The notes: a model not told the origin generated them from the sequence alone. A stretch of DNA of 64,000 nucleotides from Adineta ricciae (GCA_905250025.1 CAJNOJ010000062.1:301974-365973), one strand, 5' to 3'; counted from the stretch's first letter, positions 1,880 through 50,884 are shown. Numbers and translations: made by a program.

Positions 1880-1950
1880 AACATAAACACATCTTCTTTC
1901 TCTCTTTCTTTCTTTCATTTTATTTGCAATAAGAAACATTCAAGATACAT

Positions 1951-6990: not shown

Positions 6991-7759
6991 CTCTACGGTT
7001 GAAAACGAAAGTAAACTACAGTAAAACAACATTCCCTTTTTTCCCCGTTAATCAATTATTCACTGGGTTTTTTTTCAGTCGCAACTCTCAAAACAGCGAA
7101 TGAGATTATTCACATTGAGAGATTCTCATTACCAATCGACACCGAGATCTGAAATATGCAGAGATTTCGTGCAAGAAGTTCATTTCCTGTTGTAAATAAA
7201 TAATAACTTAAAGAATAAAGGTAAATCGATAAAATAAAAATATAACACGGTTAACAAAGAAGAGATAGCAAACAAAAAATAATTTTCAAACAAAAAAAGT
7301 CAGTTCTCAAACAATATTAATAATCAACGTCGAGCATGATTTTGTTCTTTTTCTCTCTCCGAATCATCAATTGAGATTACAACGTTCGACTAGAGTATTC
7401 GTCTTAACTCAGCTTATGGAATGTAATCTAAGGCGCATAGTGAACATGTTTAAAATGCAATAACAGATTTAAAAAAAAAGTCAAATAAAAAGGAAGCGAG
7501 TAATGAATGTTTGACTATGAGCTAGATTATTTCGTCATCGATTATGGAGTTAAAACTGCTCGTTCGAGGTGCCATCGTTGTTTAGGATTATTTTCTTGCT
7601 GGCATGGTGCTAGAAGAGAATTGTTCATATAAAAACGATTTTTCAGCAATTCGACTTACTAAGTAACACTTTGCCCGATTGAGCTTTCTCATCAACCGTC
7701 ATACATTGACTAGATTTGACGTGTTTCATATGCTTCGTCTAGAATTATAAATAGTCGAA

Positions 7760-16623: not shown

Positions 16624-19600
16624 ATGTTGTTGTCATTGTGGAACAAGGTAGCCAATAGAATCAATTGTAAGTCAAACAAAACGAGATTTTCATTTTGTTT
16701 CATGAATGGATCTTCGATGATTGCTAAAAAATTTTATCTTATCGGTGGACTATGTCTGATTTGGGGAATATTCGGTGTCGAGAGAACGATTTATTGGTTA
16801 TTTCTATTCCTAACAATCGTTTTTGGGTTGGTTCTTGTTTGATTTCTTCTGAAACTATTTGACTCATCTTTAGTTTCATTCTGCATTTGATTATTCACAA
16901 ACAAACATGGGCGAAATCCAATTCACTCTATGAACATATTAGAATATCATTTGTCAAAGCAAAACTACTTACACACGTAAGAAAAACACGAAATGATCGG
17001 GCAAGTGTATCATTAATAATGAGTTTTGTTGTTGTAGATTACTGATATCGAATTCGATTCATTATCACGTTCCAAACCATCGAAGACATTAAATGATCGT
17101 GCATCATTAACAGGAGTATCTGATATTGATGAGCCACTCTATGAAGTAAATGGAGCTCTCGGAGACGAATAATTGAATTTTTGATTATGGTTTTCTAGTT
17201 AATCGATTTGTTTGTTCGTGATTATGTTGAAATTTGGTACAAAACTCAATTAAGTTCAGATGAACTATTCGTTGAAGATGTCAAAAATGGCATTTACACG
17301 GCGATTCGTCATCTATCTGAAAGGTACTTTTCATATTTTCCATTCTCATCAATTGCACTACTTTCTTTTTGTATTAGATTGCGTGAAATCGATTGGTTAG
17401 AGTTTTGTACGGGAACAATCGTCGATAGTTTTGCTACGCATGTTCGACTGTATCGAAAAGCTAAAGAACGTATGCGTTTGGAACAATCGACAGACATTCG
17501 TTCGTGCTTCTTTGATTTGGAAGCAGAATACGAACGAGGAATTTGTCGCGATGATGTCTGTATGGATAAAGACAAAGAAAAAGGTTTGTGCACTAGTTTT
17601 CTCTCAACTTTGATCAAGAAAGACGTCCTCTACTAGAGTTTCTTCGAGATATCGTCGAAGTTCTTTTGTATATACTTCTTCCGGCGAATGAATTCCGTTG
17701 TGTACCAGCTCGAATTCTCATTCGAGTATGTTCAACGAATCGATCGAGTCACTTATGAATTAGATTTGTTTTCAATAGGAAATTGCAGTCAATCTAGGTT
17801 TAATACCATTCATTGATATGTATGCTGATCCTGACGCCGTCAATCAATTGATTATCAAAATGGTAGAATGAACAAGAAAAGAGAATTGTTTTACACAAGT
17901 TTCTATTTAGTGTCAACAAATTCCATTAACCATCGACAATTTCCTTCTAGTCGTTCGAACGACTGACTCCAGAATGGAATTAAGTACACTATTAGAAAGA
18001 CTTGATATTGAGACAAGCCGGTGGAGATCGAAAGACACCGGAGGAGAAAACGGTAATCGTTCTTTTTTTTTTCTTCTTCGTAATTCGATGTTTATCCAGA
18101 TGCCGACGTGCGAGCTGTACTAAATAGTTATCAATATCTGAAAAAATTACTCAACGAACGATTGGAAGATCAACTTCGATTGGAACCTATGATATTTGTT
18201 CGTGTTTTTGTTGTTGATGAATCTCATCGACGTACTTCGTGTTATTTATTATTCAGGATGATGATGATTCGGTATCAAAAGTATCTTATCGAGAATTGCC
18301 ATTGACAGAAATTCTAAACAATTGCAATGGCTTAGACTATTTTTTAAGTAAGTTCGATTTTAAATAAGATGACTTTTTAAAAATAAGACGTATTTATAGA
18401 ATTTCTGCAATCGATCGATGCTGTTGGGTATGGAAGTTTTTACTTGAATGCAGAAGTATGTCTAATTGGAATGAACAATTGTATTTTGATGGCATTTTTA
18501 GGCATTCCGATGTGCTGGGATAACAGCAGTTCAACAGAATGGAAATATGACTGAAGAACAACATCAATCAAATCAGGCAATCTTACGAAATATGGCAACT
18601 GATCTTATCGAACAATATTTTCTTCCGACTGTAAGTATCGTAAGTGAATTGCATAGCAAATTGAAAGTTTACGTCATTCAGGGTACATTCAAATTACCTA
18701 TGGATGAAAATCTCATTCAAAAAACACTGAAAGCTCTACAAGCACAAACAATCGATGAAACACTACTGGATGAACTACAAACAAAAGTATGGTCTTTACT
18801 TTTCTGTACATCGTCACTTCGATCACGGTCTTTCATAGGTTTTCGAAATTCTCTCATCTGATAAATACTATGGTCAGTTCAAAACGACATCACAATATTT
18901 GAAAGTTTTAAGCGAAATTGATTTCACCGACTCACTTGCTGATAATTCCGGTAAGATTTTCTCGCCATACAACTAATCAAAACCTATTCCGTCCATGTGA
19001 ATCTAGATGCTCTGTCATTATCGAGTAATAATAGTAATGAAATCTTGAATGACATCAATGAACCTCACCAATCAAGTCCAGGAAGTAGTTCGAGTAGTGC
19101 ATCAGCATACGTACCTGATCTGCTTGATAATGTTGACAACTATGTAATCACTACTGAAATCAATGATTCCGGTGAGATCGATGCTATTGATAGGATACGT
19201 AAGACGTGTGCTTTGTAGGTATATGTTGTGAAAAGGGTGAAAAATATGCAATCTATGTGATATCTGTGTCTTGTAAATCATTAAATCCGATGATGGATGA
19301 TCAAAAACGTGAATGGATAACATATCGTCGTTACAGTGAATTCAATGATCTCCATATGACAATTAAAAAACGTTATCCCGCTCTGCGTGAGTTTATTCAG
19401 TTACCTAATAAGAGCTTTATGAACAATACCAGTCAAGAAATACGATTGAAACGGCAAAAAGAATTGAATGATTATTTAGCTGTAAGTTCGATCGTTTATC
19501 TTTTTATTTAGAACTCTTTTAAACCTTCTTTCAATTGTAGACATTAACCAAACCGAAGGTTCTACACAATAATCCAGGCCTTGGCGAACTCTTGCTCAAA

Positions 19601-21056
19601 TTCTTGCGAAATCAGCAATGGAAGCACGAACAAACTGAATTATCTCGAAAGGTACGATTCTTTTCTCAACTGAACAAATGATTTTTCACAAAGAGCAAAC
19701 ATATCGACATTTCTTATAGGATTTTTTCACATCAACGGTTTGTTTTGTTTTCTCGTTCGTAGTTTAATCATCACGAGTAGTTCTGTGTGCACATATGTTT
19801 TAAGGATATTGTCTTCTTTCATTTTGCGTTCTTCAATATCATTTGTTTGATCATCTTGAATTGAATTATTTGCTTTTCGATTTTTGTACAGATGGACACA
19901 TTGGTCAATCCATTCAAACAAGCATCGATCGGCATCGTGAAAGGTGTTTCCAAAATCGGAGGTGGTCTAACTATCGTTTCGGATAGTGTCGTAGAAAATG
20001 CGAGCAAGATCTTTCGAACAAATGGAAATAATTCCAATCGAATAAATATTAATTTGAACAAAGATTCTCAAACATTTTCCATCGTTGAAGAAACTCAAGC
20101 AGAGGTAGGAGGAGAACGTTTGAGATTGTAGTTTTCATGCGTTATTGATGATACTAGAACGCAAAAAACATTCCGCTTCGTGTATTATTGGTGATTATGG
20201 ATGAAGTGTTCGATCTTAAACAGAAAAATATGTGGTTTCGCTCGAGATTTGTGGCGATTTTAAAACGATTTTTACGAGCGTTTATGGGTGATTCAGTCAA
20301 TCGGTGAGCTAATTTTTAAAAACACTCAGTCTCTTCATCGTTGCTCTTTGATATTAGACGTATAGCAACTTTTGTTCAACATTGGACATCGGCCAAGAAA
20401 ATTGCAAAGGAAATCTCTCGATTCATGTATGAAATCCATTTCAATCGATTCGATTTAACCAAGATTGTTTTCTAGAGAAGGATATTGGCCGAATGGTATT
20501 CTAGCTGATAAACCACCTAAACGTGATGACAGTGTTCGACATGTAACACAAGTATTATGTAAAGCCAAATTGCTTGGTATTGTTTCAGGTAGATTTTTGA
20601 TTCAATCTTTTATCCTATTCATGTTGTGCTTGGTTTCTAGACGAACTTCGGCACATTATTGGCAGCGAAACAACACGTCGTGGTTTATTGCGTTTGTTTG
20701 AATTACTACAAAATGAAACGTTCAATCGTCGATTCGTTTATATCGTGATCGAAGCTCTGTTGATCAAATTATTTCGACCGAATGATTTACATTTGATCTT
20801 CGAAAAACTTTACTCTCAATCCGAACGTGTTAAAGAAGAATACCGACGACGAATCTTCGAACAAGAACATTCTCACAATGGTATCATCATCACTCCAACA
20901 CATTATGGCGAAACTGGTCAACGACCTTACTACTTCAGTCGTCTATCAGTTCGAACCGATGATAATATTGGTTTACACAGATCCAATAGTGTATATCAAC
21001 AACAGCAACAACAAAAGACACTTCCTCGAAGTTTTTCGAAAATATCGCGCTAACTT
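16624..21056 (+). CDS. RGS-PX sorting nexin (SNX13/14/25-like): N-terminal TM helices, PXA, RGS-like, PX and C-terminal nexin (PXC) domains, many exons
   Basis: N-terminal hydrophobic exon at 16624-16842 (two TM stretches). PXA exon 17208-17335 (LIDLFVRDYVEIWYKTQLSSDELFVEDV). RGS-like exons around 18108-18300 and 18547-18650. PX domain at 19260-19485 (WITYRRYSEFNDLHMTIKKRYPALREF...IRLKRQKELNDYL). Nexin_C exons 19892-20100, 20465-20590 and 20688-21053 (stop). Start codon choice (16624 or 16705) uncertain. Confidence 0.7.
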
Positions 21057-27076: not shown

Positions 27077-30000
27077 ATGGGTGTGCTAAGTTCCCCGTTG
27101 AATGGCAAAACATTTGTGCTCGAACTTGGTCGAGATGTTCGTTTTAAAGCTAAACAAGAACTAATTAATTATCTACGTGAACAACATGCTCAGATTTCGT
27201 ACATTTTAACAGCTAGTGTAGGTTTTTCTTCTCCCTTGAACTCTCTTCCTCTCCGAAAATCTTCATCGATTAAACTTCATTTTACTCTAGACGGATTATG
27301 TTTTGGTTTCGAATGATATTGACACGTATAAAACTCGTCGAGCAAAGCAGCTCGGCATTCCATTGGTGAACGTTGATTATATTCATGAATATCGTAAATC
27401 AACTATTGGAAAAGAGTCAATTGACATCAAACGATTCATTGTTACATCGGCCGAAGATAAAGAAAATTTCTCCAAAACTGGCACCATACCAGTTGCAGGT
27501 TAATAGATATTGTCTTTGCAGAAAATTTATGTTAATGAAATGTTTCATTTCATTTCATTTCAGGAGGAGGCAGTTCGTCAAGTAGTGTAGTAAAACCTGT
27601 AAAATTTGATGTATCGAAAGTTAGGATCTGGAATCACGATGACGTTGAATTGCCGCGTTTTGATGAAATAACCCACGCTGAAATCGGTAAATGGGCCATT
27701 TTTAAGGTATAAATGTTTAGGAAACAGAAATAGATGATCGAAGTAGCATTGTTTTGTTTTTCGTTTGATAGGAAACAAATGATCATTCGGATGTTTATTT
27801 TGCTCTTGAATTACAAATTATTCCGGAAGAATATTTTTATCAGCAAGCGAATAGTGATTATCAATTTCGTTTTCGTTACGAAAAGCAGACCATCGTCAGT
27901 TCAAAAGGAAAAACGTCAGTTATTCAGTATGCATTCAGTAACGATATCAATGAATTGCATCAATTATTTGCATCTTATTACTATCGTATTGCAACAATGC
28001 CTCGAATAACACGCATTCGAGATTTATTACCTGATAAATTGGGTTCGAAATTGCTGTTACGCGTAAGTTGTTGAACAGAACGAATTCTGCTTTCGGACAG
28101 ATGGGTTCTTCCATTTCAGTCATTGTTTCTGCATCGAATTGACACACAAATGCTTAACGATGATGTTTGTCAGCTGATCGAGTCACTTTGGATCGAATCT
28201 ATTGGAGATTTGAACAAACTTCTAACTGTTCCACCTGAATCGATCGCTTTGAAAGCAGTATGAAAATATAGAAGGAGAAAGTGTAATGAGCTCTTTGAAT
28301 ATTTTCCGTAGATTATTGAAGCTGAGGCAGCTTTACTGGAAATCAAATCAAACGATGAATCAGCATCAGAAGCGCAAACGCGTTTTTACTCACTGATTCC
28401 TCATCGACAGCCGCATGTCGTCGATCTTGTTAAAAATCGACGAACTTTGATTGACAAAATCGATTTGTGTCAGGTAAAGTATGAATTTTGAAACTGTTTT
28501 TTGGTCAGACTTCGAATTGTAGATGTTACGTGACATGCTTACTATCAATGAATTGACAAATTGGAATATTAAAGCATCGATCGAAGCGAAATATCGTGCA
28601 TTGAAATGTCACATTGAAAGTATTGAGAAAGATAGTCATGAGTATGCCACAATTAATAGTATGATACATTCGTCCACGAATTCGTATGTATTTTGATATC
28701 TGATGGAGAGATGTCGATATATTTCCCTTGCGACTCTTGTAGGAACGAAGAAGTTATCGTTCATCAGATTTTCAGCGTTGCTAAACAAACCGATGCGTTG
28801 AATTTTCGTTCGACACTGTTCAATCAACGACAACTTTTTCATGGTTCGAAATACAATAATTTTCTGGGCATTCTGTCACGGTAAATCATCGATTCGTAAA
28901 AGCTATTCTGTTCAATTTTCATTTCTTTCTATGCTTTCAGTGGTTTAATGTTGCCGAAATTGGTCGTCGATGACTTGGGAGTGACTCGTACTGATTTCGG
29001 ATGTCTCGGATATGGAATCTATTTTTCGGATTCGGTTTCTACATCTCTAAAATACACAACACCGAGTACAACGCGTCCTGGTCGCCGATTACTATGTATA
29101 TCTCAAGTAGCATTAGGTGAATCAGCGAAATACTATTCCTATGCAGCAAATTTAACACAAGCACCCGAAAATTTCCACAGTACACATGGGATAAAGAAGA
29201 CCAGTGACAATAATTCGAAGTTTATTGTAAGTATACTTCTTGTTATTGTAGGCAAATTTTCAAAATGGACTATTTAGGATGACGAATATGTTATTTATAA
29301 TCTTGACCAACAGCGATTATTGTATATTGTTGAAGTTTCATGGAAACCACATGATAATACCGATCAAGTATTGAAAGTATTACCGATTGTTCGTGATTCT
29401 TTACTTAATCAACTTCATAGCATGAAAAGTGAAAGTAAATGAAGAGCTTTGCACAACTTATCTTCGTTTAACATGACTTTTCCAATTTTGTTTTGTAGTC
29501 GTTGTACCATCATCAATCGAAGATGAAGTAATTCAAGTAGCCGAACAAGATTATGGTTTAATTTGTCCATCATCTGGTCAACTGGTTCCATTGAAAGCGT
29601 TCCATATTCGTGCTCAACTTGTCGATGTAACTGCTGAAGTATGTGGAATGATTTTCTCCTTTCAGTTCATCTTTTCTACAAAATACTTCTTAGGTTGTTC
29701 TCTACCAAGTTTATCACAACACAAGTTCAGTGCCGATCGAAGCCAAATATGTATTTCCACTGGATGAGAACTGCTCCGTTTGTGGTTTCGAAGCTCATAT
29801 TAATAACAAAGTTATCAAAGGTGTGGTCAAAGAAAAGGAACAAGCAAAACGTGAATATCGTGAAGCAATTGAAAAAGGTCATGGTGCGTATTTGATGCAT
29901 CAAGAACAACCTGAAGTGTTCAGTGTGTCCGTTGGTAATCTACCAGCCAATTGCGAAGTGGTCATCAAAATTACTTATGTCGCCGAATTACCTATTGAGA

Positions 30001-31934
30001 ATAACGATATTATCTTTCGTTTTCCAGCCAAGGTAGCTTCATGGCAATCGAAGCAAGCTCTAGAATCGAAGGATCAAACCATACTCCCGTCCATTAGTCT
30101 TGAACGAGATGATTCGCTAATGAAATCGGTAGAGTTTAGCTTGAAAGCATCTGTGCGCATGCCGTATGAAATCAGTAAATTATTCTCTCCAACACATCGT
30201 CTTCGTCGGAAAGTAACCGATTGTGTAGCGATGATCGAAATGGTTGACAACGTTCTCTTAGACAAAGATTTTCTTCTCTCGATAGCACTGAAAAATATCA
30301 ATGTACCACGCATGTTGAACGAAACATACACTGTTTCTGATGAAAATAATAACGTTGAGATGAATGATGAACAATCTCAAGCGTGTATGTTGACATTTTA
30401 TCCAAAATTCGAAATGACAACTAATACGAATGAATTCGTGGAAGTTATTTTCATTATTGACGTGTCGAACTCGATGGATGGACAGCATGTACAACAAGCC
30501 AAACAGTTGGCACACCTATTTCTAACAAACATGAAAAACGACGATGCAAACATTTATTTCAATATCGTTACATTCGGATCAGGTAACTTATCGAATGTTG
30601 AAAACTAATGCAAGTTGTTTTTCATCATTTCATAGATAATGATGAATGTTTTCCAATTTCCTTACCAAATACAAAGGAGAACATCGATAAGGCAAAGCAT
30701 TTTGTTCTGGTTTGTATTGTTTGTCTTTTTTTTTAAATGTAATACTTCTTTTAATGTTATAGCATTCGCTTGATCATCGTGGTAATACTGATCTTTTCAC
30801 TGTACTTCGTCAGTATTCTCTTTTACCATCTCCATGTAAACTTGGCCGACAATTTATTCTTCTCTCCGACGGGCATGTCAATGATCTGAATTCGATTCTG
30901 ACTTTACTAGAAAATCAATCGTCTATGAAACATGATCGTTTCTTTACCTGTTCAATCGGTGACACATCAAATAAGCATCAACTCAAACAACTAGCTAACG
31001 GAGCACATGGCGGTGGACTGACCACTGTGTTTGATTCAAACTTCCGTTCACGATGGAAATCAAAAGTTCTTCTCATTCTCGAACATATTCGTCAACCATG
31101 TGTAACCAACATATCAATTGATTGGCATGGAACTATCGAAAATGAACAGGTGAGATTTACCAATCAAGCACCAAATATAATCCGTTCATTATTCAATGGT
31201 ATGCGTTTAACTGTGTATCGTTTCATTCAAAATTGTCATAAAGCCACCTTGACAGCAATGATTAACGATCAAGAATTTGTTACTACTGTGTTTAGTAATA
31301 AGATGACTGAAACAAAAGGACGAATTTTACATTGTTTGACTGCACGTGCGATTATACATGATTATGAAAATGGTTTGTTGCATACCGATGAAAGTGAAAA
31401 CGAGCTGATCAAAAAACAATATAAACAAGATCTAATTGATTTAAGCGTAAAATATTCAGTCGTCAGTTCATTTACAAGTTTTGTAGCAATCGAAGAACGA
31501 GATCGTGATGAAGTACTTGAACCAGGTAAGACATATTCTTCGAGGCCGAATCAAGCAATGCCTTTTTTGTCTGTCATTTAGGTGTTCGACTACTTGATGT
31601 AATGCTTGAATCAGATATTGATCTATTACCATATATTGGCTGGGATGGTGATCGATCCCAAATAGAGATAGTGAAAGAGAAGCTATTGAATGCCAAACGT
31701 TCATTTGAAAATGCTTCGATTTCGAACAAACTTGAATTAACTCAGGAGTATGAGAAACTTTGTCAAAATATATCGTACCGGTCGGGTGGTGATGCTAAGT
31801 ATGATTTAATGCTAGCAATTATTGACACGTACCGAACAACATTGAAAGATAATAGTAAAGCGTTGGAATTGGAAGAAAAAATTCAACTTGGTAAACTTGA
31901 AAGTACTGTCATTGATTGGTGTCGACTGATTTAG
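27077..31934 (+). CDS. PARP4: Vault poly(ADP-ribose) polymerase, PARP4/vPARP-like: BRCT - PARP catalytic - VIT - vWA - C-terminal region, many exons
   Basis: ATG at 27077 with BRCT-like exon (MGVLSSPLNGKTFVLELGRDVRFKAKQELINYLREQHAQISYILTASV). PARP catalytic signature across 28690-29300 (LFHGS..., GIYFSDSVSTSLKY, LLCISQVALGE, catalytic-Glu region DEYVIYN). VIT domain at 29730-30060 (VFPLDENCSVCGFEAHINNKVIKGVVKEKEQAKREYREAIEKG). vWA with MIDAS motif at 30440-30600 (VIFIIDVSNSMDG), continuing at 30660-31581. C-terminal exon 31602-31934 (stop TAG). A further possible terminal mini-exon 31949-32045 could not be settled. Confidence 0.8.
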
Positions 31935-32051
31935 CCTTTTGTAGAACTATCGAATGAAGTAAAGAGCGCAACGGCTGACGAACGGAAAATACTAGAGAAA
32001 CGTCTGGCAGAAATCAATGCACGTATTAATATGGCGGAATCGTAAATAAAA

Positions 32052-35000
32052 ATGACGAAAGAGAAAGAGTTCCTAGGAATATTTTTTTATAGAGAAATTT
32101 CGTATGACAATAGCGAAGATGAAGAGAGTGGGGAAGAAGACGAAAGCGGTAACGAACATCTTTCTTGCTTAAAGATTGCTTGCAATACAAATCTCTTCAA
32201 TATAGACGATGAATGGTGTGACGAGGGCGAAAGAGAGTGTCTAGTAAGTTGTTTTGGTTCACAGAACGAAAAAATCTTTTATGAACTAACTTATTGTCGT
32301 TTCTTTTTAATCAAAGAGTCGATCGTATTCTCTTGACGAAGGTATGTTAATATGTTTGAAAATATTCTTTCAAATGATTTATTTTGTGAATATTTTCTAG
32401 AGAGAAAAAAAGATTCTGATGTAATTGATCGAATTGAATGCCACATCGCAAGAGCAACTTCACCAGTTAGAGAGTACTGTACATCTCCTGGAGCAGATGA
32501 TTATGATGATGCTGATGATAGTGATGGTGATGTGGGCTGGGATCTCTTTGAAGCTGATAAGTCTGCGTCAGTTTTGTTAACTAGCTTGAGTGAAGTGTCT
32601 AGACCTATGAAGCCAACTGCAGCTGCAGCAGCAGCACAGCCGGTTGCTAGCAAAGAAAAAGGCAAGAAGGAAGCCGAGGAAGAGGATGACGAGGATGCAG
32701 ACTGTATGGGCTTCGGTCTGTTCGATGATTTTTCACCGCTTACATCACTTTCTCCAGTAAATCGTCACAAACAGGATGCGCAACTTGACAAAGCTGTGGA
32801 TCCATTTGCAACCAATGCTCGCCGTTTAATGCCAGATATAGAAGAACATTCACTAGAAATAGGTGAGAACCTTTCACGAAACATTTTTTTATTTCTACTC
32901 ACTTTAATTTTCATATTCATTGATAGCAATGCCCGCTTCTAACGCGCTTGTGACACCCAAGTCGAAATCTATGATCACATCACAAGAAAAGATACAAGTA
33001 CCTACTAAAAAGGATCGTAAATCAGCAATTGCTTCTATAATAACAAAAAAGGCAGTCTTAGATGATAAAGAAAGTACCACTTTTACCGAAACACAATTCC
33101 CACAACAACAACAACAACAGCAACAAATTCCAATGAACCCTTTCACATTCCCTCAACAGTCATTTTCGTTTGGTTCTACAAACGCAAATTCGTTGTTTTC
33201 TAATCAAGGCGCTGTGCCCACAGTAGCACAGTCAACACCATTCTACAACAACACCGCTGCACCACCCTTACATTCATTCACAGCCTTCACATTCAACAAT
33301 AATCAACATTATTCTTCCTCACACCCTGATTTACCATCACCTCGTCAGACTACTACTACTGGGACATCTTCATTTGGTACATTGGAAAATGCTGCGTCTA
33401 CGTTTTCTTCGCCAAACTATTCACCATACAGTCCTTCTTATCCAAATCAAAGCAGTTCGTACACTAGTGTACCTCCACCGCCGCCATCATTCGCTGTACC
33501 CGTACCTTCTGGACTGTTTGGTAGTGGCACAAGTAGTACAAGTAACTTATTTGGTGGCTTCATCGCACCAGGATTATCAGTACCACCACCACCACCACCA
33601 CCTCCACCTTCGCAGACTTTTGGAATGTTTGGTGGCTTCGCCGCGCCAGGATCATCAGTACCACCACCACCACCACCTCTGCCTCCATCTTCGCCGACTT
33701 CTGGACTGTTTGGTAGCTTCGTGGCACCAGGATCATCAGTACCACTACCACCACCACCACCTCTGCGTCCATCTTCGCAGACTTCTGGACTGTTTGGTAG
33801 CTTCGTGGCGCCAGAATCATCAGTACCACCACCACCTCCACTTTCGCAGACTTTTGGAATGTTTGGTAGCTTGGTGGCGTCAGGATCATCAGTACCACCA
33901 CCTCTGTGTACATCTTCGAAGACTTCTGGACTGTTTGGTAGCTTCATGGCGCCACGATTATCAGTAGCACCACCACCACCACCACCTCCACCTTCGCAGA
34001 CTTTTGGAATGTTTGGTAGCAACTTAGCATACGAGGGTGTACCTTCTGTATCAAAATCAGATAATGATAGCTCACGGTCTTCAATGAAATATTCATTTTC
34101 GCCTAGTATTTTTGAAAAAGCACAGGAAAACGACGCGCTAAAGTCTGTGCAAACTAGCTGGATGCAACCATCAGGGCGAGGCAGAGGCAGTGCATCTCCG
34201 AACGCAAGCGCTCGATTCTGTGATGTTTGTATAGAAAAAATAGCGTTGGAATTTCGTATGATTTTTGTTTCATTGTAGTTACGCAACGATCGTAGTCGTA
34301 CCGACTCGATAGAATCTATTACATTCGACCGGACAAGTAGATATGATGATTTATGTGCCAGAAAGAAATCAAAATCTAAATTGTACGTATAGTAAAGAAA
34401 TCGCCTGTATACTAACCGGAACGTATTTATTTATTCGTTTTAGGAAGCTCGAGTCGACAAAAGTTAGCGGCCATGTTGAAGATCATGCACAAAATCTCTT
34501 GCTACTTGATGTTACACCACTTAGTTTAGGCATAGAAGATGTCAACGGTGAAATGTGTACAATTATCAGTCGCAATCGTACAATCCCAACGAGATCAGCA
34601 GTCTATTCTATATTCACTAATGCTTATGCCTATCAGACGAACGTTGTCATTCGTGTTTTTCGTGGTGAACATAGACTGACGAAATACAATGTAAGTAATA
34701 CTTTTAGATAATTACAACGAAAACTGTTTTGTCTTCTCTGTAGACTTTTATTGGTGAACTGATTTTGAAAGGCGTAACATCGAATTTTGCTTCACAAACA
34801 TTACAGATCTCAATTTTCATGGATATCGATGCGAATGATTGGTTTGAAGTTCATGCAGAAGAACCCCGATCAGGTGCTAAAGCAATGATTAGAATCGATC
34901 TAAATAATTGTAAGAATCTCTAATTCGAAAACTGTCGACAATCTTCGATTATTTTGTAGTTAAACTCAGCGCAGTTGATATTGAACGGCATTTGAACTAC

Positions 35001-35760
35001 GTCGAGAGTAACGCTGATCACAAAGCTGCGAATTTTGAATACGCACAAGCGAATAACAATCGATTCATGGTTAGAATTACATTTGAAATCTAGATATTTT
35101 GAAAAGTTCTGTTCATTTTAGCTCAAAGGTGATACTGAAAACACGTCCGTTAGTTTTACAGGCGGTACAGATGATTTAAATAATCTTCTTAACTTCCAAC
35201 GACCAAAAAGTCTCACATTAACTTCAACAGTGATAAATGAATTGAAACGAATTCAATTACCCAACGGATCATTCGAGATCAATGAAGATTTCGCGAAGTT
35301 ATTCTCGTTTCCAATAGAAAACTTCGATAAGCTTAAGAAATATTTCATTTCACAAGGTTTCAACTCATTTGGTAAGTCTAAACCTCAACGAAAAGAGTCA
35401 TTCACCATTAATCACTACCTTGTAGCTTTGAGTGTACAAAAGGATATCATGCAACTGATTGCCACTGGTATCGTTCTTCTACAATTGTTATTCCAAGTGC
35501 CAGTATCAGAACGAAAGGAATATTTAGTTCCATTTGATAGCGAACAAATAAAAGTAAGGAAACATGAATGTTTCCCTCGATAGATTTCGATTGTTTGTTT
35601 ATTTTTAGTCGATTTTTCATGGTCATTTGCCAAAAACTTTAATAGAAAACGCGAATAAAATGGTTGATTTTTATAAACAAAAGCGTTCACAGTGTGGAAT
35701 TTATTGCGAACAATTAGAATTGAAATACTCATCATGGGAAAAATTCATCCAGTACAGCAT
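32052..35760 (+). CDS. Chimeric-looking gene: acidic N-terminus, Pro-rich FG-like tandem repeats, then an Hsp70 substrate-binding domain (SBD-beta and SBD-alpha) with no nucleotide-binding domain, plus C-terminal extension
   Basis: ATG at 32052. Exons 32052-32243, 32312-32336, 32386-32871 (acidic, DDYDDADDSDGD) and 32920-34220 (Q-rich, then 7+ copies of SGLFGSFVAPGSSVPPPPPPP). After small exons, an exon starting about 34441 reads KLESTKVSGHVEDHAQNLLLLDVTPLSLGIEDVNGEMCTIISRNRTIPTRS...VIRVFRGEHRLTKYN, aligning to the Hsp70 linker+SBD (DLLLLDVTPLSLGIET...RNTTIPTK...VYEGERAMTKDN). Next exons are FIGELILKGV...ISIFMDIDANDWFEVHAEE (Hsp70 LGKFELTGIPPAPRG...VTFDIDANGIL) and KLSAVDIERHLNYVESNADHKAANFEYAQ (Hsp70 GRLSKEDIERMV... 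lid). Extension to about 35583-35760. Whether all exons form one transcript is an inference. Confidence 0.55.
33540..34020 (+). repeat. Coding tandem repeat of about 80-90-nt period, at least 7 copies, encoding poly-Pro + (S/T)GLFGSF / TFGMFGG motifs
   Basis: Recurrent DNA unit ggatcatcagtaccaccaccaccacc...tcttcgcagacttctggactgtttggtagcttcgtggcgcca seen directly at 33575-34020. Peptide unit GSSVPPPPPP(L/S)PPSSQTSGLFGSFVAP. Confidence 0.85.
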
Positions 35761-36388
35761 ATTCAATATCGAAAACTGATTGAACGAATTCATTTTTCTC
35801 TTTTAACCCCGAAAACATTTTTCACTTTGAAATAAATATTCTAATACAACTAAACGTGTGTATCCACACATCTACGTTCTTATTCTTATCAAGGGTTACC
35901 AACAAATTCGATATCGTACGTCGTACGTTTCGAATACTTTGTTTAACATAAAACCTGGTATCTGGATGTCTAGTTTTCACTCTCTTTTGATGAATACGAA
36001 TTTCTGGCCTAAGTACTATGATAAGAAAACGGTAATAATTTTCAGCCTACATTACGAGAACTGATATGATATTCGCATTCATTTCCAGGCTCATCCAACC
36101 ATATATCGTTATCACAACATGTTTTCATTCTCTCTCGTATATCGATTCACAGGCAAAAACGAATACTGACAAAGAACGATCTGTGCACGTATCGATTCTA
36201 TTCTCTTTCTCTATCTTTTTTTTCTACTATTCGCGATAACTCGCTGTATAAAAGGAGGTATGTTTAGCGTCTTTCTTTCACTTCTTACCTCATTTTATCA
36301 TAGATCCGTTTTCGTCGAATCAGTAAGTGAACAGTTCAGCGCAAAGAGCGTTTTCCACAAATGCATGTTGACTTTCTTCAGATTCATA

Positions 36389-36926
36389 ATGCAAGCCAGC
36401 CCTGCCCTTGAAAAACTTAAAGGTACCTGGGAATACGTCGATGGTGAACACTTCGACGATTACATGAAAGAACTCGGTGTTGGTTTTGCTCTTCGTCAAT
36501 CAGCCAAATTAGTCAAACCAAAATTAATCATTCAGGAAAATGGAGGTAAATGGTCACTCAAAAGCGAATCAACACTCAAATCAGCTTCATACGAATTTAA
36601 ACCTGGCTGCGAATTCGATGAAACACGTCTTGATGGTGAAAACGTCAAAGTAAGTTCAACCAGAACGCTTGAATTTCATCTTTTCTATTTCCCTATCGTT
36701 CATTTAGTCCACAGTTAAATTTGAAAACGACAAATGGGTACACACCATGCGTGATAAGAATGGTAAAGAATCAACAATCACACGTTGGGTTGATGAAAAT
36801 GGTCAACAACAAATTGTATGATACCATTCGATTTGTGGAATCATGATTATTTGATTATTTTCTCTCACATAGGTAATGAAAGCTGGTGATGTCACCGCTC
36901 GTCGTTGGTACAAACGTGTCGACTAG
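36389..36926 (+). CDS. Fatty-acid-binding protein (FABP/iLBP family), 3 coding exons: 36389..36649, 36708..36815, 36873..36926
   Basis: MQASPALEKLKGTWEYVDGEHFDDYMKELGVGFALRQSAKLVKPKLIIQENGGKWSLKSESTLKSASYEFKPGCEFDETRLDGENVK | STVKFENDKWVHTMRDKNGKESTITRWVDENGQQQI | VMKAGDVTARRWYKRVD*. The iLBP signature GxW...F(D/E)xYMKxLGV...TxRQ and the C-terminal R.Y.R are present. Donors GTAAGT at 36650 and GTATGA at 36816, acceptors tttag at 36707 and cacatag at 36872, phases consistent. About 140 aa. Confidence 0.88.
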
Positions 36927-42809: not shown

Positions 42810-44780
42810 TTAATCGTAAGCACTTAGACCTTCTTGACTTTGAGAAAATGAGTTATTAACCAGCATGGATGGTTCGGCTAAGTATTGCTGGCCTGTTGCT
42901 GGTCGAATAACTCGATAGTGCAATTCATCGGTTGTCGAACTCTCTCTCAATGGCAAAATCTCGTTTGGTATATCAACAAGACAATGAAAAATATCATATT
43001 TAGGTGGTAAAATGCGTCTTTCGAAAAGACACTTAACTAATTGAGAAACAATTAATATTGTTGCCAACGATATAAGCATGCATAAACTTTTCGGTGGAAT
43101 GTATGGACCAAAATGAATTGTTGCTGGAATACCTAACAACGGTTCACCAATTAGAAATCGAAAGAAAAAGCCAACGATGTATGCTGCCAGTGACCCATAA
43201 GTATTCGTGTGTGGAACATAGACCACACAGAGCAATTGAGGAAATAATATGACATAGACGAGATCCGAACTTAAATACCAAAGAACGTAAATAGATGACA
43301 CAAGGATGCCAATGCAAGCTGCGCCAATGCCAACAAGAAATATACCAATACGCATGACAAGTAATACTTCTCTTTCCGATGCCTGTATTATTTAAAGAAA
43401 GAAACTAAGAGGATGATCTTAAAGGAAAAGGCAAGCATACCTGATCACGAAAAACAAGTTTCCAAATGTTTCGAGCAAACATGGAACTAGCGCTGAGCAC
43501 GCTTGAATCAGCGCTCGACATAACTGCAGCAGAAACTGCGCCTAAGCCGATGAAGGCGATGAATTTTGGACATAGATGCAGAAGAACCAATGGTAAAATC
43601 AATTTCGTCACTTCAGGTGAATGAATATCTTTCTTGATATCATAGTCAGTCATATTCCAATCTTTAATACACAAACTGAAGTCTAAACACATTTATACCG
43701 AAAGAATATTTTCTACAAACCGGCAGATTTTGCGATCGCTCCTATGAGTATAGGTGGTATTGCTAATACAATGCATCCGACCGCAGCGCAGAATGACAAA
43801 TACATTGCCTTTTTCGCTGATTTTGCTGATAGTACACGTTGAAAATACACCTAAAAAAGTATCGCTCAATTAGTTCATCATAATATCTGTTACACGCAAT
43901 GCCACAAAAAATTCTCACATTCTAATAATCACACACATCTACATAAGGACAAGAAATCAAGCTATTCTATATACCTGCCAGGGTATTCCACCGAAAATTA
44001 ATAGCAACATATTATCTGTCCATTCTACCATTTGTGATTTATCGAGATGCCCACGCCATTCAGGCCATGTAGTAACGATATCGCCAACACTTTTGTGTTG
44101 CATAGCAAATGGAACAGCAATCCACAGGCCAATAAAGATAAAACCGAGTTGAACAACGTCTGTATAGGCTACCGAATACAATCCACCGAAGAGCGTATAG
44201 ATGATGACAACGGCAGCTAAATTACCAAATAATCAATTACTGTTTTTCTAAAATAATATGATATCAAAGTTGAATATTTACCTGACAAAACAATAGATGC
44301 TGTTATGGAAATATCGGTGAAAATAACACTGATTGTTGCTCCTAACGCGGACAAAATCGCTGCCGACCAGAAGACTTCTCCGAGCAAAGCTGGAATAAAC
44401 AAAAGCCCGCCCATCCGTTGTCCATATTTACGTTGAAATGGATCAAGCATAGTAACATATCCCGCATCTCGCATCGGCTGTGCGAATAGTAACCCACCAA
44501 CAATTAAACTAACTGCATAACCAATCGGTGCTTGACAAGCAAGCAGACCAGTGGAAAAAACTTGTTCAGCAGTACCGTTTATGTAAGCTCCTCCTACCCA
44601 TGTAGCTGTCATTGTAAAGATACCGACTAGTAGGCCAATGTTTCTTCCCGCTAGCATAATTTCTTCGGTATCGGGCGATGCTTCCGATGATTTTTGCTTT
44701 TTTCCGGCCCATATTCCCACAAGTAGAATTAAAATATAAAAAATGGCAATGGCCACCAGACCACCAAGATGTACAATCAT
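42810..44780 (-). CDS. SLC5A7: High-affinity choline transporter (SLC5A7/CHT1-like, sodium:solute symporter family), 5 coding exons: 44780..44282, 44216..43975, 43850..43721, 43682..43441, 43382..42810
   Basis: [32 protein letters not shown]...[37 protein letters not shown]...[68 protein letters not shown] is near-collinear with vertebrate CHT1. Later exons give [32 protein letters not shown]|[20 protein letters not shown] and [31 protein letters not shown] (identical core to human CHT1). Last exon [23 protein letters not shown]. Donors and acceptors located, phases consistent. Confidence 0.9.
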
Positions 44781-45237
44781 CGTCTAAAGAAAATGGCTAA
44801 ATCCGTTTTCTTGTTACATCGAAGAAAAAGACTGAATGAATAGTATCTTCTAACCGGAAGTTTCCTTTGCCAATGGGAAATTAGTGGAAAACGAGTAGAG
44901 CAGAAAAATGGTGAAGTATCATAGAAAGATAATGGTATTCAAAAACGAGAATAACATTATTGTTTAATGTCATTCGAAGTTCTCGTTTCTTTTTTTTCTT
45001 TCTTCTTCTCCTCCTCCTCCTCATCTTTTTCTTCGTCTCTTTTTTACATTCAGCTTTTTGAACTGAATCAGACAAATTTTTCTTAGCAATTAGTTTTCTC
45101 TAAAAAAATTATAGACAATAAACTTACGGACGACTTGATCGTATATTTGTATTTTACGGGTTGATGTTTGTTCCCGTTTGTGTTCCTTTCTATCTCAATT
45201 CTACTTCTATCACAATGAACATCATGTTAGTTTCTTT

Positions 45238-46224: not shown

Positions 46225-49200
46225 TTACACGGATGATTCTTGAGTACTAACTATGTTTAACAAAGTTAGTGGTAGGTCTTGCAAAGCCAGTTTATTATCA
46301 ATGAGAACGCCGATAGTTCCATTTAAAGATAATGGAATCTTGCCGGCTAAGAGAGGAGGTAGCAACGCTACCATTGTTGATAATTTCGCAGTAATTTTGA
46401 CTTCTATGTAGTCAGTTGTGATTTCCTCATAGGGACCAATTTTAATAAGCGTAGTACTGGTAACAGTACCAATTTGTTTGTCTTCATTCAATATCTCGCC
46501 AAAATCAGCTCGGACGTCCATTTTTGTTACAGCTATAGACGAACTAAATGGATTTTTCAATACGAGTCGCGTTGAGAGTGTTTTAACAGTGCCAAGTGGA
46601 ATACCAATTATTTGAACTCCAGACAGTTTTTTCAGAAGAATTTCCCGTACAAGTGTTCTCTCGTTACGAAGGCCGGGAACAGTGGCGTGAATTTGTAGAC
46701 CAGCAATAGCTGTGGATAGTAACGAAACAGACGTGCCTACTGAATTATTTGGTAATATTCCACGCAGTTCGACATCATTATCTATTCCACATATCATATC
46801 AGAAATAAATTGATGAGCTACAACTGTATTGCTGGGTGTTATAGCGAATGTGCCTGTTGCATTCAATATTGTACTATTTCCTTGAGGATCAAGATAGAAT
46901 GGATCGATAATCACTAAACCAAGAGAGACTCCACTTTTTACATCTCGTAAATCGAGCGAAAGACGACCAGCATCACGAATATTAACAACCGATGGATTTG
47001 TTATTTTGGTTTTCACACGAAGTGCTAGTTCGTTGGATGACATGGCTCCCGATAGGTCAATATTATCAATATGTAAAAGTCCTTTGTCGAATCGATCATA
47101 ACCCGTCAGCTTAACAGTATCACTCACTGGAATATCTGTTAAAGTAATATGCCCGATTTCAATCTCGGCTACTGCTGCAGCTGTGCCTTGAATTGTTATC
47201 GATACACTTGTGTTCAAAACAAGCTGAGCTGAAAATGCTTTGAATGATTCCTGATCGAGTACAATCAGTTCTTCTTTCGAAAAACTCATCGAAAGTTCAT
47301 TCGTTGTTTGATTATGCTTAACAGGTAAATCATGAAGAATCATGTGGCTCATACTGGGTCCGTTATTAAAACGTATCACATAGTCAATGCTTGTTGTTAA
47401 TGCTTTGAAAGTCATATGGACGTTGGATGGTAATTCAAATAGAACTGACAACTGACCAGTGACATAAACACGGCTGACATTTTGCCGATCGAATTCAATA
47501 CCAAAATCGAGAACTTCAACTTGACGGATCAACTGCGTTTGAATTCCATCAAGATCGGCAGACATTGAAAGACCGCTAACAGTCAAATCCATACCAGTTG
47601 GTTCCGTTGCTGTAGACAAATCATGAAACAATCGAACTGACTGTGTTTGACTATTGAGATATGCAGAAAAGAATTTACCAACAACGGGTAAATCACTTTC
47701 CTGTCTGGGGGCAAGTAGACTACGAACAAGAGAACACTATTAACGAACATTTACTTCTCGTACTACTAAACTGACCCGTGAAGTATTATGTTGTTGCTGC
47801 CTGGTTTCAAAGCTAGCACACTAATGGGTACTCGACCAATAACCGTTTCTGTGTTCCCATCGGCCATCAAAAGTTCGAAATTTTCAAGTTGAACATCAGT
47901 GACACCTGGATTGCCAATAGTTGTATTAATTAAAAGTTGGAGAGCGTTATCTTTTTCTCCATCAACTATGATACTATGCACGCGTACATCTCGAAGGCCT
48001 TCGAGACCCACCAATGAAACAGTATTCTCAACAGTGATACCTTTACTATTCAGAGGACCGAGTGCAAATGAACCAGCGATCGAGGCAGTTCCAGCAACAC
48101 GAAATGAAATCGGAGTCGCTCTATCAGCAGTGATAAAATCTTGTGCAAATTTCTCATACGCTTTTCCTGTATTCGATATTAATAAGTATTTATTCTCAAA
48201 TTGTGATGAAAATGTACTATGACCGATTTGTTTCACTGGTGCTTGAGAAACGTTTAACATACCAACGGGATTGTTATCATAATAAAGAAACACACTCATG
48301 TCCATCGTTTGAATCTCTAGTGGAGATTGCTGACCGAGCGGTGAATTGATCTTAATCGTAATCGACGCTGACAACATCACCGTCTTTTCAGTTGCCGATG
48401 GAATAAGTGACATCGAATCGAATACTAATGAAGGAATCAATTGTTCATCGAAGGGTGGCATAGGTACAACTAATGAAAGACCTTCCATGCCACTGGCAAG
48501 TAAAGAATATGAAGTTGCGTTTGGTCCAGCTACCGCGCCTACTCGACTTGTTTTTCCTGTTAGGAAGTTTTCGATGACAGAGGAAAGTGCAGCATATGCT
48601 TCAGAAGATGCTGATTGAAGTTCGCCAGTTAAAGGTACAACATTCGAACCAGGAACTAAAGTAATATTACGACTAATTGATTTCGCATAGCCAATGGACT
48701 GATTATTATAACGTAAGGAAAATTGTAGAGCACCTAAAGAATATGAATTAAGAAGATATGTAGACAAAGATCTTCTGTACCGAGATCTATTGTAAATATC
48801 GATGGATTGGCAATTTCGATGACAATATCGACAATAATATTCTTTGTGGTCGAACGACGAAGATCGACTTCCTGAATACTTACATTTCGAAGACCGTTTA
48901 AAGCATCGAGTTTAACTTTCTTATTGAACGGAATATTTGAATAGACAGGCATCGCCGATGATATTGGTTGAATAGTAGATTTCGCTTTCAGAAACCATAC
49001 AACCTCCGATTCAAACAGAAGAGAACGAGTAAAATCATCAAACAATCTTTGCTCAGTTACAACAAATGGCGAATCAATTGGAACTATTGTCGGTTTACTA
49101 TCATCACCAGTAATCTTAATCGACTGTTCATTTCGTACAACTCCAACATCATCAACATGAATAACCAATGGTGAAAGAATCGTTGCAGCAATCGATCCTG

Positions 49201-49651
49201 TTCGAGACAATTCCAATTCTGCACGGAGACGAAAACTGTCATTTTTAATATCTTCAATATTAATCCATCGGAAAGATAATTCAACTTTCTCGATCGTTGA
49301 ACGAACAATAGCCGGAACAATAACGTAAAGTACAAGTAAAGCACCGACAAGGATTAGAAGTAGAATAATTGCGATACATAGAAGAATAAAATATTTTCGC
49401 CGCATTTTGATACCTTTAAAACGGCCACACATTGTGCACAATCTGACTTTCTTCGTCGACGATTTCATTGGTAGATCGAGCCAATTGACTTCCTCTTCCT
49501 CATCATTGAACGATGTGACTATGTTTTCTTTATCACTAGAGTTCTTGAAACTAGTTTTTACATAATCCCTTTCATAACCGTCAGTGTAATCATTCGTCTT
49601 GCTAGATGTTTTTATATAAGCTACCGAAGGATCCGATTTTTTTCCACCCAT
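46225..49651 (-). CDS. Large (about 1100 aa) type-II single-pass membrane protein whose ectodomain is built from repeated beta-rich modules with ...NP... strand motifs resembling LEA_2/WHy (DUF3712-like) domains, 3 exons
   Basis: First ATG at 49651 (MGGKKSDPSV...). TM anchor YFILLCIAIILLLILVGALLVLYVIVPAIV. Exon 1 ends about 48784, exon 2 about 48732..47770, exon 3 about 47631..46225 (stop). Repeated motifs IEIANPSIFTIDLGT, TTIGNPGVTDVQLENFELLMADG, KTKITNPSVVNIRDAGRLSLDL and LVLKNPFSSSIAVTKMDVRADFG each sit about 100-120 aa apart. Family call tentative. Confidence 0.6.
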
Positions 49652-50884
49652 TGTTGAGTTTACGTTTGGAAAGAGAATCGAGATGTAACACACAAAATCA
49701 AGACAGCCTGCGAGAATTTCGTTTTCGTTTTATGCACTGTCATATCACTATCTTCACTGTTTCCTCGACAAATTCACGAATATTGATAAGCCGTTGTCAT
49801 ACGAAGTCACTATCAGTCGTAGATAAAGAGAAAACATCATGTATCACTGTAACGAATAATGTCGTCATTGAAAATTGAAGATTACTTTCAAGTGTAAGTC
49901 ACACTAACATTTGCGCCCGTTCGTGCTCAAGCTCAAAGTCCACAAACTTACATCCATAACGCTAACACGACAATCCATCGATCCACTTTACCTTAGTTAT
50001 ATTATACTCATACGAGTGATAGAGAAACTCTTGGACAAATAATGTAGATGATATAATCACGTGTTATGTCGAAAGCTGAAAGTTGCTTCGATATCTTACA
50101 AAGATTTGTATATTATCATGAATTATTCTGCATTATGATGCGCATGAAATGTTCATGAGAGAAAAATAACACTTTAGAGTATTTCATATAAGATAGAAAA
50201 CGTTACACATTCTTAACAACATGTTCTCTTCTTGTATAATTATTCATATAGATTGATCATCGCTACTATTTTTCATCTGTCGAGATGCTCTATTATTACA
50301 CTTATATAAAGCATCATTTGCGTCTTTATCAGGTGTCATTACTGAACACTAGAAGACTTTTCTCATTCTTTATCTGGAAAGACGTTTTCCTGAGTGATTA
50401 TGTCTAACATTTGTATAAAGATTTGTCTATTTACTGAGCTTTGCTGTTAATATCATCAAAGCGATTGCTTTTTGATGTGTAACGTCTGAAAAGCGGAATA
50501 AAATAATCTGTAAACTAGTTTTTTTTTCAGTCGCTGTTCTTTCCTACGAACTACAGTTATAGAATGTTTTGCATTTTATTTTCAATTTCATGATTGGAAC
50601 AAGTTTCCCACTTCCCGAACAGCCTGTTTCATTTCTATTAATTTCTTCAATTTTTAAATCTTATTTTAGTATGCGAGCTTGGTAAAGCGTGAAAATTATA
50701 AAAGAAGGAAGGAAAAAAACGGGGGAGCGTGACACAAACACAAATAGATCGTTCTCCGTGAACTCATCCCTACGGCAGCACGATAACCCGGCTCTTCCGG
50801 GTAAATCATGGCACAGGTACGTAAATTTAAATCTACAATCGTTTTTCTCCGAACAAACAATATATTGTTTATGAATGATTCTAG

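Follow-up and report, generated by a model that had tools for sequence, protein, structure and literature searches.

The function of the vault has been an open question for decades, and a locus in the bdelloid rotifer Adineta ricciae raises the question of whether this animal encodes a complete vault poly(ADP-ribose) polymerase (PARP4, or vPARP), where such a gene would end, and whether its product would reach the vault. The locus lies in a stretch of 64,000 nucleotides (GCA_905250025.1 CAJNOJ010000062.1:301974-365973), hereafter the window, in which the GC content is ~35% and the introns are very short; all positions are counted from its first letter. The original prediction had assigned positions 27,077 to 31,934 to a PARP4-like protein with a short C-terminal region. 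The locus is the A. ricciae orthologue of PARP4 (vault PARP, clade 5A), a single gene of 27 exons, real and intact, which continues to 35779. Our overall reading, to which we assign a probability of about 0.72, is that the protein is a PARP4 orthologue anchored in the vault through its MVP-interacting (MINT) domain, with modules in its linker that serve as capture sites.

The gene model was built by hand from the ATG at 27077, with the open segments joined through canonical GT-AG introns of 49-73 bp. The gene and the domains of its N-terminal body are the following:

27077..35779, + strand: whole PARP4 gene; 27 exons, 26 introns, a coding sequence (CDS) of 7,209 nt, 2,402 amino acids (aa), stop codon TGA at 35777-79.
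27089..27386, + strand: BRCT domain, aa 5-79, exons 1-2 (Pfam PF00533, E 5.3e-5, 23.8 bits against a cut-off of 21.3).
28318..29337, + strand: PARP helical (regulatory) remnant and ADP-ribosyltransferase (ART) domain, aa 310-576 (Pfam PARP and PARP_reg).
29591..29978, + strand: VIT domain, aa 640-750 (Pfam PF08487, E 8.3e-38).
30441..31011, + strand: vWA domain, aa 905-1059 (Pfam VWA_3, 2e-13; VWA, 1.5e-10).

The first ~1,275 aa comprise the BRCT domain, a helical domain (HD), the ART domain with its H-Y-E triad, the VIT domain, the vWA domain with a metal-ion-dependent adhesion site (MIDAS), and an ITIH-like tail. The canonical vPARP order of BRCT, PARP, VIT and vWA had been predicted, and the Pfam scan of the assembled CDS agreed with it far past chance. 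In that scan, the PARP catalytic domain (aa 399-576) was matched with an E-value of 6e-26, and the PARP_reg match (aa 310-373; E 8.4e-5) was under its cut-off. The BRCT domain is present in the Adineta vaga orthologue too. The catalytic motifs quoted in the prediction were located at aa 446-450 (LFHGS; 28834-28848), aa 486-491 (GIYFSD; 29014-29031) and aa 558-564 (DEYVIYN; 29281-29301). The triad codons, H448 (28840-42), Y488 (29020-22) and E559 (29284-86), are all present, and the motifs LFHGS / GIYFSD / DDEYVIY align residue by residue with human LLHGS / GIYFSD / DDEFVVY. The protein is predicted from these intact motifs to have NAD+-dependent ADP-ribosyltransferase activity. The quoted MIDAS-bearing vWA motif, VIFIIDVSNSMDG, corresponds to aa 906-918 (30444-30482). 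Within the vWA domain, D911-x-S913-x-S915 of the MIDAS lies at 30459-30473, GNTD (aa 983-986) within 30778-30792 and D1012 of SDGH at 30868-70, and these motifs align with human DCSSSMEG / GNTD / SDGH.

The best match among PDB sequences was human PARP4 (11jf/9bw6/9bw7; E 3e-200), with query residues 217-1274 aligned to human residues 202-1232 over 1,058 aa. The PARP4 HD-ART crystal construct 8sx1 matched at E 6.6e-65, and PARP1 and PARP2 at ~1e-21. The PARP4-like identity is borne out by the human match and the complete triad. An incomplete triad together with a genome lacking MVP had been named as grounds for a VIT-vWA protein of other function; the triad is complete, and MVP genes are listed for the congener A. 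vaga.

The 3' boundary depends on three features:

31891..31944, + strand: intron 15 (GTAAAC...TTGTAG), 54 bp, which contains the TAG at 31932-34.
31945..32041, + strand: exon 16, the "mini-exon" of the original prediction, internal rather than terminal.
32042..32092, + strand: intron 16 (GTAAAT...TTATAG), 51 bp, which contains the TAA at 32043-45 and an in-frame ATG at 32052.

The first 15 exons from the ATG at 27077 give the protein as it was originally described, with its end at 31934 or, alternatively, through a mini-exon at 31949-32045. Neither end held: the TAG at 31932-34 sits inside intron 15, and the TAA at 32043-45 forms bases 2-4 of the intron 16 donor (TC|GTAAAT). All 26 introns of the model are GT-AG and in frame, with lengths of 49-73 bp and a mean of 57 bp. 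The splice signals of intron 16 itself are a good donor (GTAAAT), a pyrimidine-rich tract and the acceptor TTTTTTTATAG|A at 32093, and the frame continues after splicing. Eleven exons follow exon 16 (10 beyond exon 17) and run in frame to the TGA at 35777-79, including a 25-nt micro-exon at 32317-32341. Over aa 1-2394, the model shows 100% identity to the public A. ricciae protein P0001 (GCA_905250095.1, contig CAJNOR010000783.1); an independent pipeline thus picked the same 26 introns. The junction at intron 16 reads ...AES|E... in P0001 as well as in P0002.

The A. vaga genomic locus has equivalents of both introns at the same codon position and phase, intron 15 as CTT G|GTAAAA...CATAG|AA CTA and intron 16 as GAA TC|GTTAGT...TTTTAG|G GAA, the latter without an ATG. 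The peptide that results from read-through of intron 15 is not conserved. Collinear orthologues are present in A. vaga (2,221 aa), A. steineri (2,579 aa), Rotaria sordida (2,409 aa) and R. magnacalcarata (2,401 aa). The C-terminus of the model, ...SSWEKFIQYSIFNIEN, agrees with those of A. vaga, A. steineri and Rotaria, and the orthologues all end in ...SSWEK(F/L)IQY..F.I(E/N)N. In four bdelloid species and in the RefSeq oyster PARP4s, one and the same protein carries the body, an Hsp70 substrate-binding domain (SBD) and MINT. The models that ended at 31934 or 32045 (models A and B) were dropped because the frame stays open beyond them and because both the public model and the orthologues extend further.

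The ATG at 32052, 6 bp past the TAA at 32043-45, shares the reading frame of exon 17. It could permit a linker-SBD-MINT protein from an internal transcript, and given this ATG the short reading was not absurd when judged on the raw sequence. Two transcription units, a short PARP4 that runs to the TAA at 32043 and a second gene that starts at 32052 and encodes the linker, SBD and MINT, are nevertheless highly improbable. A 6-bp intergenic gap is too small for a promoter or untranslated regions, and the 51-bp interval has a donor, polypyrimidine tract and acceptor that resemble those of the other introns of the gene. The absence of an ATG from the intron at the same site in A. vaga speaks against a second gene with its start at 32052, and vertebrates, molluscs, sponges and other animals invariably have MINT at the C-terminal end of the protein that carries the body.

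The single gene of 27 exons encodes a protein of 2,402 aa, rather than ~1,350 aa, and its C-terminus carries the domain that bears on the vault:

35209..35776, + strand: MINT (MVP-interacting) domain, aa ~2250-2402, exons 25-27 (hhalign, AlphaFold2, Foldseek).

The last ~150-180 aa are a full homologue of human MINT, and the C-terminal region, which had been described as short, is complete. A bdelloid profile matched the vertebrate, echinoderm and sponge PARP4 C-termini with an hhalign probability of 98.6% (E 6.9e-16, 146 columns); the invariant columns were Q (in LQ..DG.W), G..S (in G..SLG), and L and W (in (R/Q)LELG..W). The AlphaFold2 model of the domain was all-helical, with a predicted local distance difference test (pLDDT) score of 85 and a predicted template-modelling (pTM) score of 0.83. 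The first-ranked PDB entry in Foldseek was chain B of 9bw6, the human vault cage with PARP4 (probability 1.00, target-normalised template-modelling (TM) score 0.63, root-mean-square deviation 4.2 Å), and the second match was far weaker (probability 0.57, TM 0.09). A phmmer search of PDB sequences with the last 153 aa gave no match; profile-profile and fold comparison were needed.

For a wider comparison, 208 PARP4-like proteins were assembled, with one of the searches seeded by a distant rotifer-like metagenomic PARP4 (P0046; 38% identical). MINT was present in 140 of them, from sponges to vertebrates, with the conserved motifs LQ..DG.W, G..SLG, LIAT and (R/Q)LELG..W. Its occurrence in rotifers and in these 140 proteins argues that the docking of PARP4 to vaults is ancient, whereas a structural paper of 2025 suggested a vertebrate innovation.

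Beyond the earlier reading, the C-terminal part adds ~1,040 aa, of which ~770 aa form a low-complexity linker. The modules identified between the body and MINT are the following:

32523..32558, + strand: weaker acidic WDLF copy of the ribosomal P-stalk tail (motif).
32610..32729, + strand: ribosomal P-stalk C-terminal-tail mimic, aa 1495-1534, KPTAAAAAAQPVASKEKGKKEAEEEDDEDADCMGFGLFDD (Pfam, phmmer).
33424..34086, + strand: eight (G/N)(L/M)FG motifs that alternate with six P4-9 tracts, aa 1745-1965 (motif list).
34454..35069, + strand: Hsp70 SBD, beta part and start of helix A/B, aa 2050-2220 (Pfam HSP70).

The Pfam HSP70 match to the SBD had an E-value of 4.9e-25 and was confined to profile positions 379-534 of 599, and residues 377-524 of Hsc70 matched it at E 5.8e-22. 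The interdomain linker NLLLLDVTPLSLGIE is kept at 34493-34537, and the pocket residues equivalent to DnaK I401, F426, Q433, V436 and I438 are conserved. Pfam found nothing that resembles the Hsp70 ATPase (nucleotide-binding) domain across the 2,402 aa. The helical lid and the EEVD motif are absent: the alignment stops in helix A/B (Hsc70 ~524-546) and the MINT region follows. An SBD that lacks both the ATPase domain and the lid would therefore not undergo chaperone-like cycling.

The P-stalk-tail segment matched Pfam Ribosomal_60s with an E-value of 6.6e-5 over profile positions 51-88 of 88, at 23.8 bits and under the cut-off of 28.1, and matched residues 72-115 of human RPLP2 at E 3e-4 (phmmer). 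Its acidic stretch includes DCMGFGLFDD, and the core (D/E)n-MGFGLFDD occurs one to three times in every bdelloid orthologue. The N-terminal dimerisation domain of P1/P2 is absent from the protein, as the Ribosomal_60s match is restricted to the positions given. Looser motifs, an acidic run followed by (M/V/L)G(F/L)GL(F/Y)D, were noted in the linkers of PARP4s from one sponge, one brittle star, two fish and two frogs (P0060, P0082, P0085, P0102, P0047, P0138). The motif may be an old element of the PARP4 linker. The P-stalk tail is bound by translational GTPases, GCN2 and ribosome-inactivating toxins.

The GLFG/GMFG and polyproline units are encoded by a DNA tandem repeat at 33550-34020 (period ~78 bp, 6.1 copies, 80% match; Tandem Repeats Finder), which accounts for the GC peak of 0.43 at 32-34 kb. 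GLFG is a Nup98-type flavour of FG repeat. Upstream of these elements, aa ~1275-1365 are helical and coiled-coil-like. The helical segment at aa ~1255-1420 was tried as a degenerate 14-3-3 module and rejected (hhalign probability 0.3%).

It is scarcely credible that the Hsp70 and P-stalk pieces are functionless, decaying debris of retro-insertions into a long intron or linker. Identity between A. ricciae and A. vaga is 88% in the body and 72% in MINT, and the linker does evolve fast, at 42%; the SBD, however, is 66% conserved against this flanking background. Likewise, although the arch residues of the SBD depart from canonical Hsp70, those of its hydrophobic pocket are invariant. The SBD is open, in frame and encoded by several exons, it stands in the same place in four bdelloids, two paralogue groups, a rotifer-like contig and bivalves, and MGFGLFDD is kept in every bdelloid orthologue. 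On these identities, the SBD and MINT appear as conserved islands within a fast-evolving linker.

With the SBD and the P-stalk-tail copy read as conserved modules, the following mechanism is proposed. MINT would fix the protein to the inside of the MVP shell, as it does in human vaults, and the long flexible linker would allow the enzymatic body to move around the vault lumen. The linker modules would serve as capture sites: judging from conserved residues, the SBD, though lidless, would bind hydrophobic stretches of peptide that are exposed, with fast on and off kinetics, and the P-stalk-tail copy would bind proteins that normally recognise the ribosomal tail, translational GTPases for example. 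Partners caught in this way would come to lie beside the ADP-ribosyltransferase inside the vault.

The genomic setting of the vault in Adineta comes largely from A. vaga. Its MVP genes, for example FUN_011957 and FUN_013870, encode the MVP-repeat and shoulder Pfam domains (Moris et al. 2024, PMC10809525), and FUN_011957 has Lottia MVP as its best match (2.5e-274, K17266; PMC10809525). The MVP genes are induced by radiation, with a log2 fold change (log2FC) of 2.5-3.9, as is FUN_013713, a PARP4-like gene that combines PF00012 with PARP, VIT and vWA (log2FC 4.5; PMC10809525). The irradiation-induced PARP4-like paralogues include FUN_013713 and FUN_024910, one with an Hsp70 domain and one with EF-hands, and one PARP4-Hsp70 gene is labelled "HSP" in one of the published tables owing to its PF00012 match (PMC10809525). 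By analogy, A. ricciae PARP4 would probably be induced together with MVP after DNA-damaging or desiccation stress. In other animals, sea urchin vaults show ~200 kDa bands and VPARP and TEP1 homologues are present in the genome. Clade 5A PARPs have been reported from vault-bearing animals only. That A. ricciae assembles vaults is thus suggested only indirectly, and we infer the docking of its PARP4 to MVP, which we regard as likely but well short of certain.

Several observations weigh against the anchoring and capture proposed here. A tblastn search of the 64-kb window with human MVP as query returned noise only (E ≥1.9). For the 9bw6 match, first in rank, the Foldseek E-value was a non-significant 0.11. 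The residues by which human MINT touches MVP are S1614, K1618, Q1682 and R1689 (Lodwick et al. 2025); the equivalents of S1614 and Q1682 are conserved in A. ricciae, but K1618 is replaced by S and R1689 by Q, the latter in all bdelloids. It is K1618 and R1689 that make a salt bridge and hydrogen bonds to MVP in the human complex, and the MVP residues that touch PARP4 are conserved in vertebrates only (Lodwick et al. 2025). We infer the binding of peptides by the SBD, and of partners by the P-stalk-tail copy, from conserved residues. Short isoforms that end at 31934 or 32045 may also arise through intron retention. 

The same protein might instead act mainly outside the vault, as a stress-induced cytoplasmic or nuclear ADP-ribosyltransferase whose BRCT region binds nucleic acid and whose C-terminus binds another partner. 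The loss of both basic MINT residues that contact human MVP would fit such a role, as would the late entry of PARP4 into vaults, in "higher" organisms, that Lodwick et al. propose. The A. vaga authors class the PARP4-like genes under base-excision repair, and these genes are co-induced with DNA-repair genes (PMC10809525); they are, however, co-induced with A. vaga MVP too. Mammalian PARP4 also has pools outside vaults. The persistence of the MINT fold and motifs from sponges to vertebrates (140/208) is nevertheless hard to explain without a conserved partner, and the restriction of reported clade 5A PARPs to animals with vaults points the same way. We therefore consider a mainly non-vault role unlikely.

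For linker modules beyond bdelloids, the 208 proteins were searched locally (phmmer) with human ubiquitin, beta-actin, 14-3-3 zeta, calmodulin, VAMP2 and RPLP2 and the Hsc70 SBD. At least one module was carried by ~100 non-vertebrate PARP4s, always between the end of the body (aa ~1220-1275) and MINT. Modules that co-occur keep one order: 14-3-3 C-terminal half, ubiquitin, actin, calmodulin, VAMP SNARE motif, Hsp70 SBD, MINT. The most frequent were ubiquitin (34 proteins), actin (30, residues 2-72 only) and the Hsp70 SBD (30), followed by the 14-3-3 C-terminal half (18), calmodulin (12) and the VAMP SNARE motif (4). The module-bearing examples come from sponges, cnidarians, echinoderms, hemichordates, amphioxus, annelids, molluscs and rotifers (examples: P0136, P0047, P0193, P0155, P0171, P0018), and none of the vertebrate PARP4s in the set carried a module. 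The module calls were in agreement with Pfam scans of four of the proteins and with precomputed Pfam lists; these lists also contain the new families PF26156 and PF26166, on which no conclusion was based.

In oysters, the SBD is likewise followed by MINT, at aa 2071-2210 and 2251-2405 in Ostrea edulis (P0137) and at aa 2008-2148 and 2189-2343 in Magallana gigas (P0157). The SBD-then-MINT arrangement is therefore not specific to bdelloids. A single origin of the embedded SBDs is favoured by their conserved position, but their pairwise identities are star-like and do not support it: every SBD resembles Hsc70 more than it resembles those from other phyla. The metagenomic contig that carries P0046 (L002; ENA ERZ4231652 NODE_5113) encodes PARP-VIT-vWA, FG repeats and an SBD at 1517-6787, followed by a MINT-like open reading frame (ORF) at 7098-7343; this SBD is 60% identical to Hsc70, far more canonical, and the nearest named relative of the contig is Brachionus calyciflorus, at 50% identity.

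Many of the hub proteins represented in the array are cofactors or targets on which bacterial toxins and effectors depend. The Hsp70 SBD and P-stalk tail of the A. ricciae gene may be two members of such an array. An ancient, ordered "bait" array, kept from sponges to amphioxus and lost in vertebrates, might display copies of the most conserved host hub proteins in the vault and capture their binders for sequestration and ADP-ribosylation. The targets of such an array would be toxins, effectors or endogenous partners. This bait or decoy reading is a hypothesis that we hold to be rather doubtful, but if true it would give the vault a concrete, testable function.

Downstream of the stop codon, the public A. 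ricciae model required correction. The gene downstream of PARP4 and other genes in the window are the following:

36389..36926, + strand: FABP/lipocalin gene, separate from PARP4; 3 exons, 140 aa.
~17200-21050, + strand: PXA-RGS-PX-Nexin_C sorting nexin, upstream of PARP4 (by the annotated contig L001).
1954-2808, - strand: rhodopsin-type G-protein-coupled receptor.
42813-44783, - strand: sodium:solute symporter.
51350-52138, + strand: nuclear-receptor ligand-binding domain.
53706-54254, - strand: Tudor-domain protein.
59840-60961, - strand: WD40 and U-box protein (WDSUB1/PRP19-like), the only WD40 gene in the window.

P0001 (2,536 aa) leaves the model at 35751 and skips 630 bp (35752-36381) into the FABP gene, an "intron" ~10 times as long as any other in the gene. 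The A. vaga annotation has a separate 140-aa lipocalin gene at the syntenic position. A PARP4-FABP fusion was ruled out by the 630-bp pseudo-intron, the conserved stop and the separate A. vaga gene; the public P0001 model wrongly fuses PARP4 to its neighbour, and the true stop is the TGA at 35777-79. The analysis thus corrects a public gene model. No TEP1 (TROVE, NACHT and WD40 domains) was found in the window: the WD40 and U-box gene was considered as TEP1 and rejected, its score against TEP1 beta-propeller models being 72 bits against a cut-off of 89. The receptor, symporter, nuclear-receptor, Tudor and sorting nexin neighbours are not vault-related. On the minus strand at 46228-49729, three successive long ORFs (503, 381 and 331 aa), each with a DUF3712 / Tag1-like domain, probably belong to a single large gene with multiple repeats.

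Orthologues of PARP4 are known throughout the animals, and public databases already include the A. ricciae protein, so the gene call itself is ordinary. No prior description of an Hsp70 SBD, a P-tail copy or a module array in PARP4 was found in the searchable literature, which leaves most subscription journals outside. Within the literature searched, the corrected gene, a variant of PARP4 in which an Hsp70 SBD and a P-stalk-tail copy precede a complete MINT, appears undescribed. A catalogue of binding modules built into the sole enzymatic component of the vault opens the way to cheap, direct experiments.

Compared with known systems, the SBD is closest in kind to that of HSPA8/Hsc70, with 40% identity over residues 377-524 and with the interdomain linker DLLLLDV and the hydrophobic pocket in common. 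It differs in a 2-residue insertion before the SIF strand and in changed arch residues; canonical Hsp70 has an ATPase domain, a lid and EEVD, whereas the PARP4 SBD is without them and cannot go through an ATP-driven chaperone cycle. With ribosomal P1/P2 (tail ...EESDDDMGFGLFD), the P-stalk-tail copy shares an Ala-rich hinge, a K/E-rich segment, an acidic run and MGFGLFD over ~40 aa; the ribosomal tail is at a free C-terminus, whereas the PARP4 copy is internal and its Pfam score is below the gathering threshold. The integrated decoys of plant NLR immune receptors, an analogy from general knowledge and not a homology, also consist of host-protein fragments in a larger scaffold that vary by lineage; no evidence of pathogen sensing was seen for the A. 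ricciae protein, whose scaffold is a PARP and not an NLR.

Human PARP4 (vPARP; 1,724 aa; PDB 8sx1, 8swy, 9bw6, 9bw7, 11jf) has the same order of BRCT, HD, ART, VIT and vWA (MIDAS), with ~38% identity to the A. ricciae protein over ~1,050 aa, and shares with it a proline-rich disordered linker and a C-terminal, all-helical MINT. The A. ricciae protein is 680 aa longer, and the human linker is without its P-stalk-tail copy, GLFG-type repeats and Hsp70 SBD; human PARP4 is a vault protein, whereas the vault association of A. ricciae PARP4 is putative. Among the bivalve PARP4s (RefSeq "protein mono-ADP-ribosyltransferase PARP4"), those of oysters differ from the rotifer protein in being without the P-stalk-tail copy, and they add an N-terminal fragment of actin (residues 2-64) at aa ~1300-1430 and sometimes a VAMP SNARE motif. 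Oyster SBDs are 31-33% identical to the rotifer SBD, each being nearer to canonical Hsc70. The plan of the bivalve and rotifer proteins is nonetheless the same: in bivalves, too, an SBD (Pfam E 1e-28 to 1e-29) precedes MINT, at a distance of ~40 aa.

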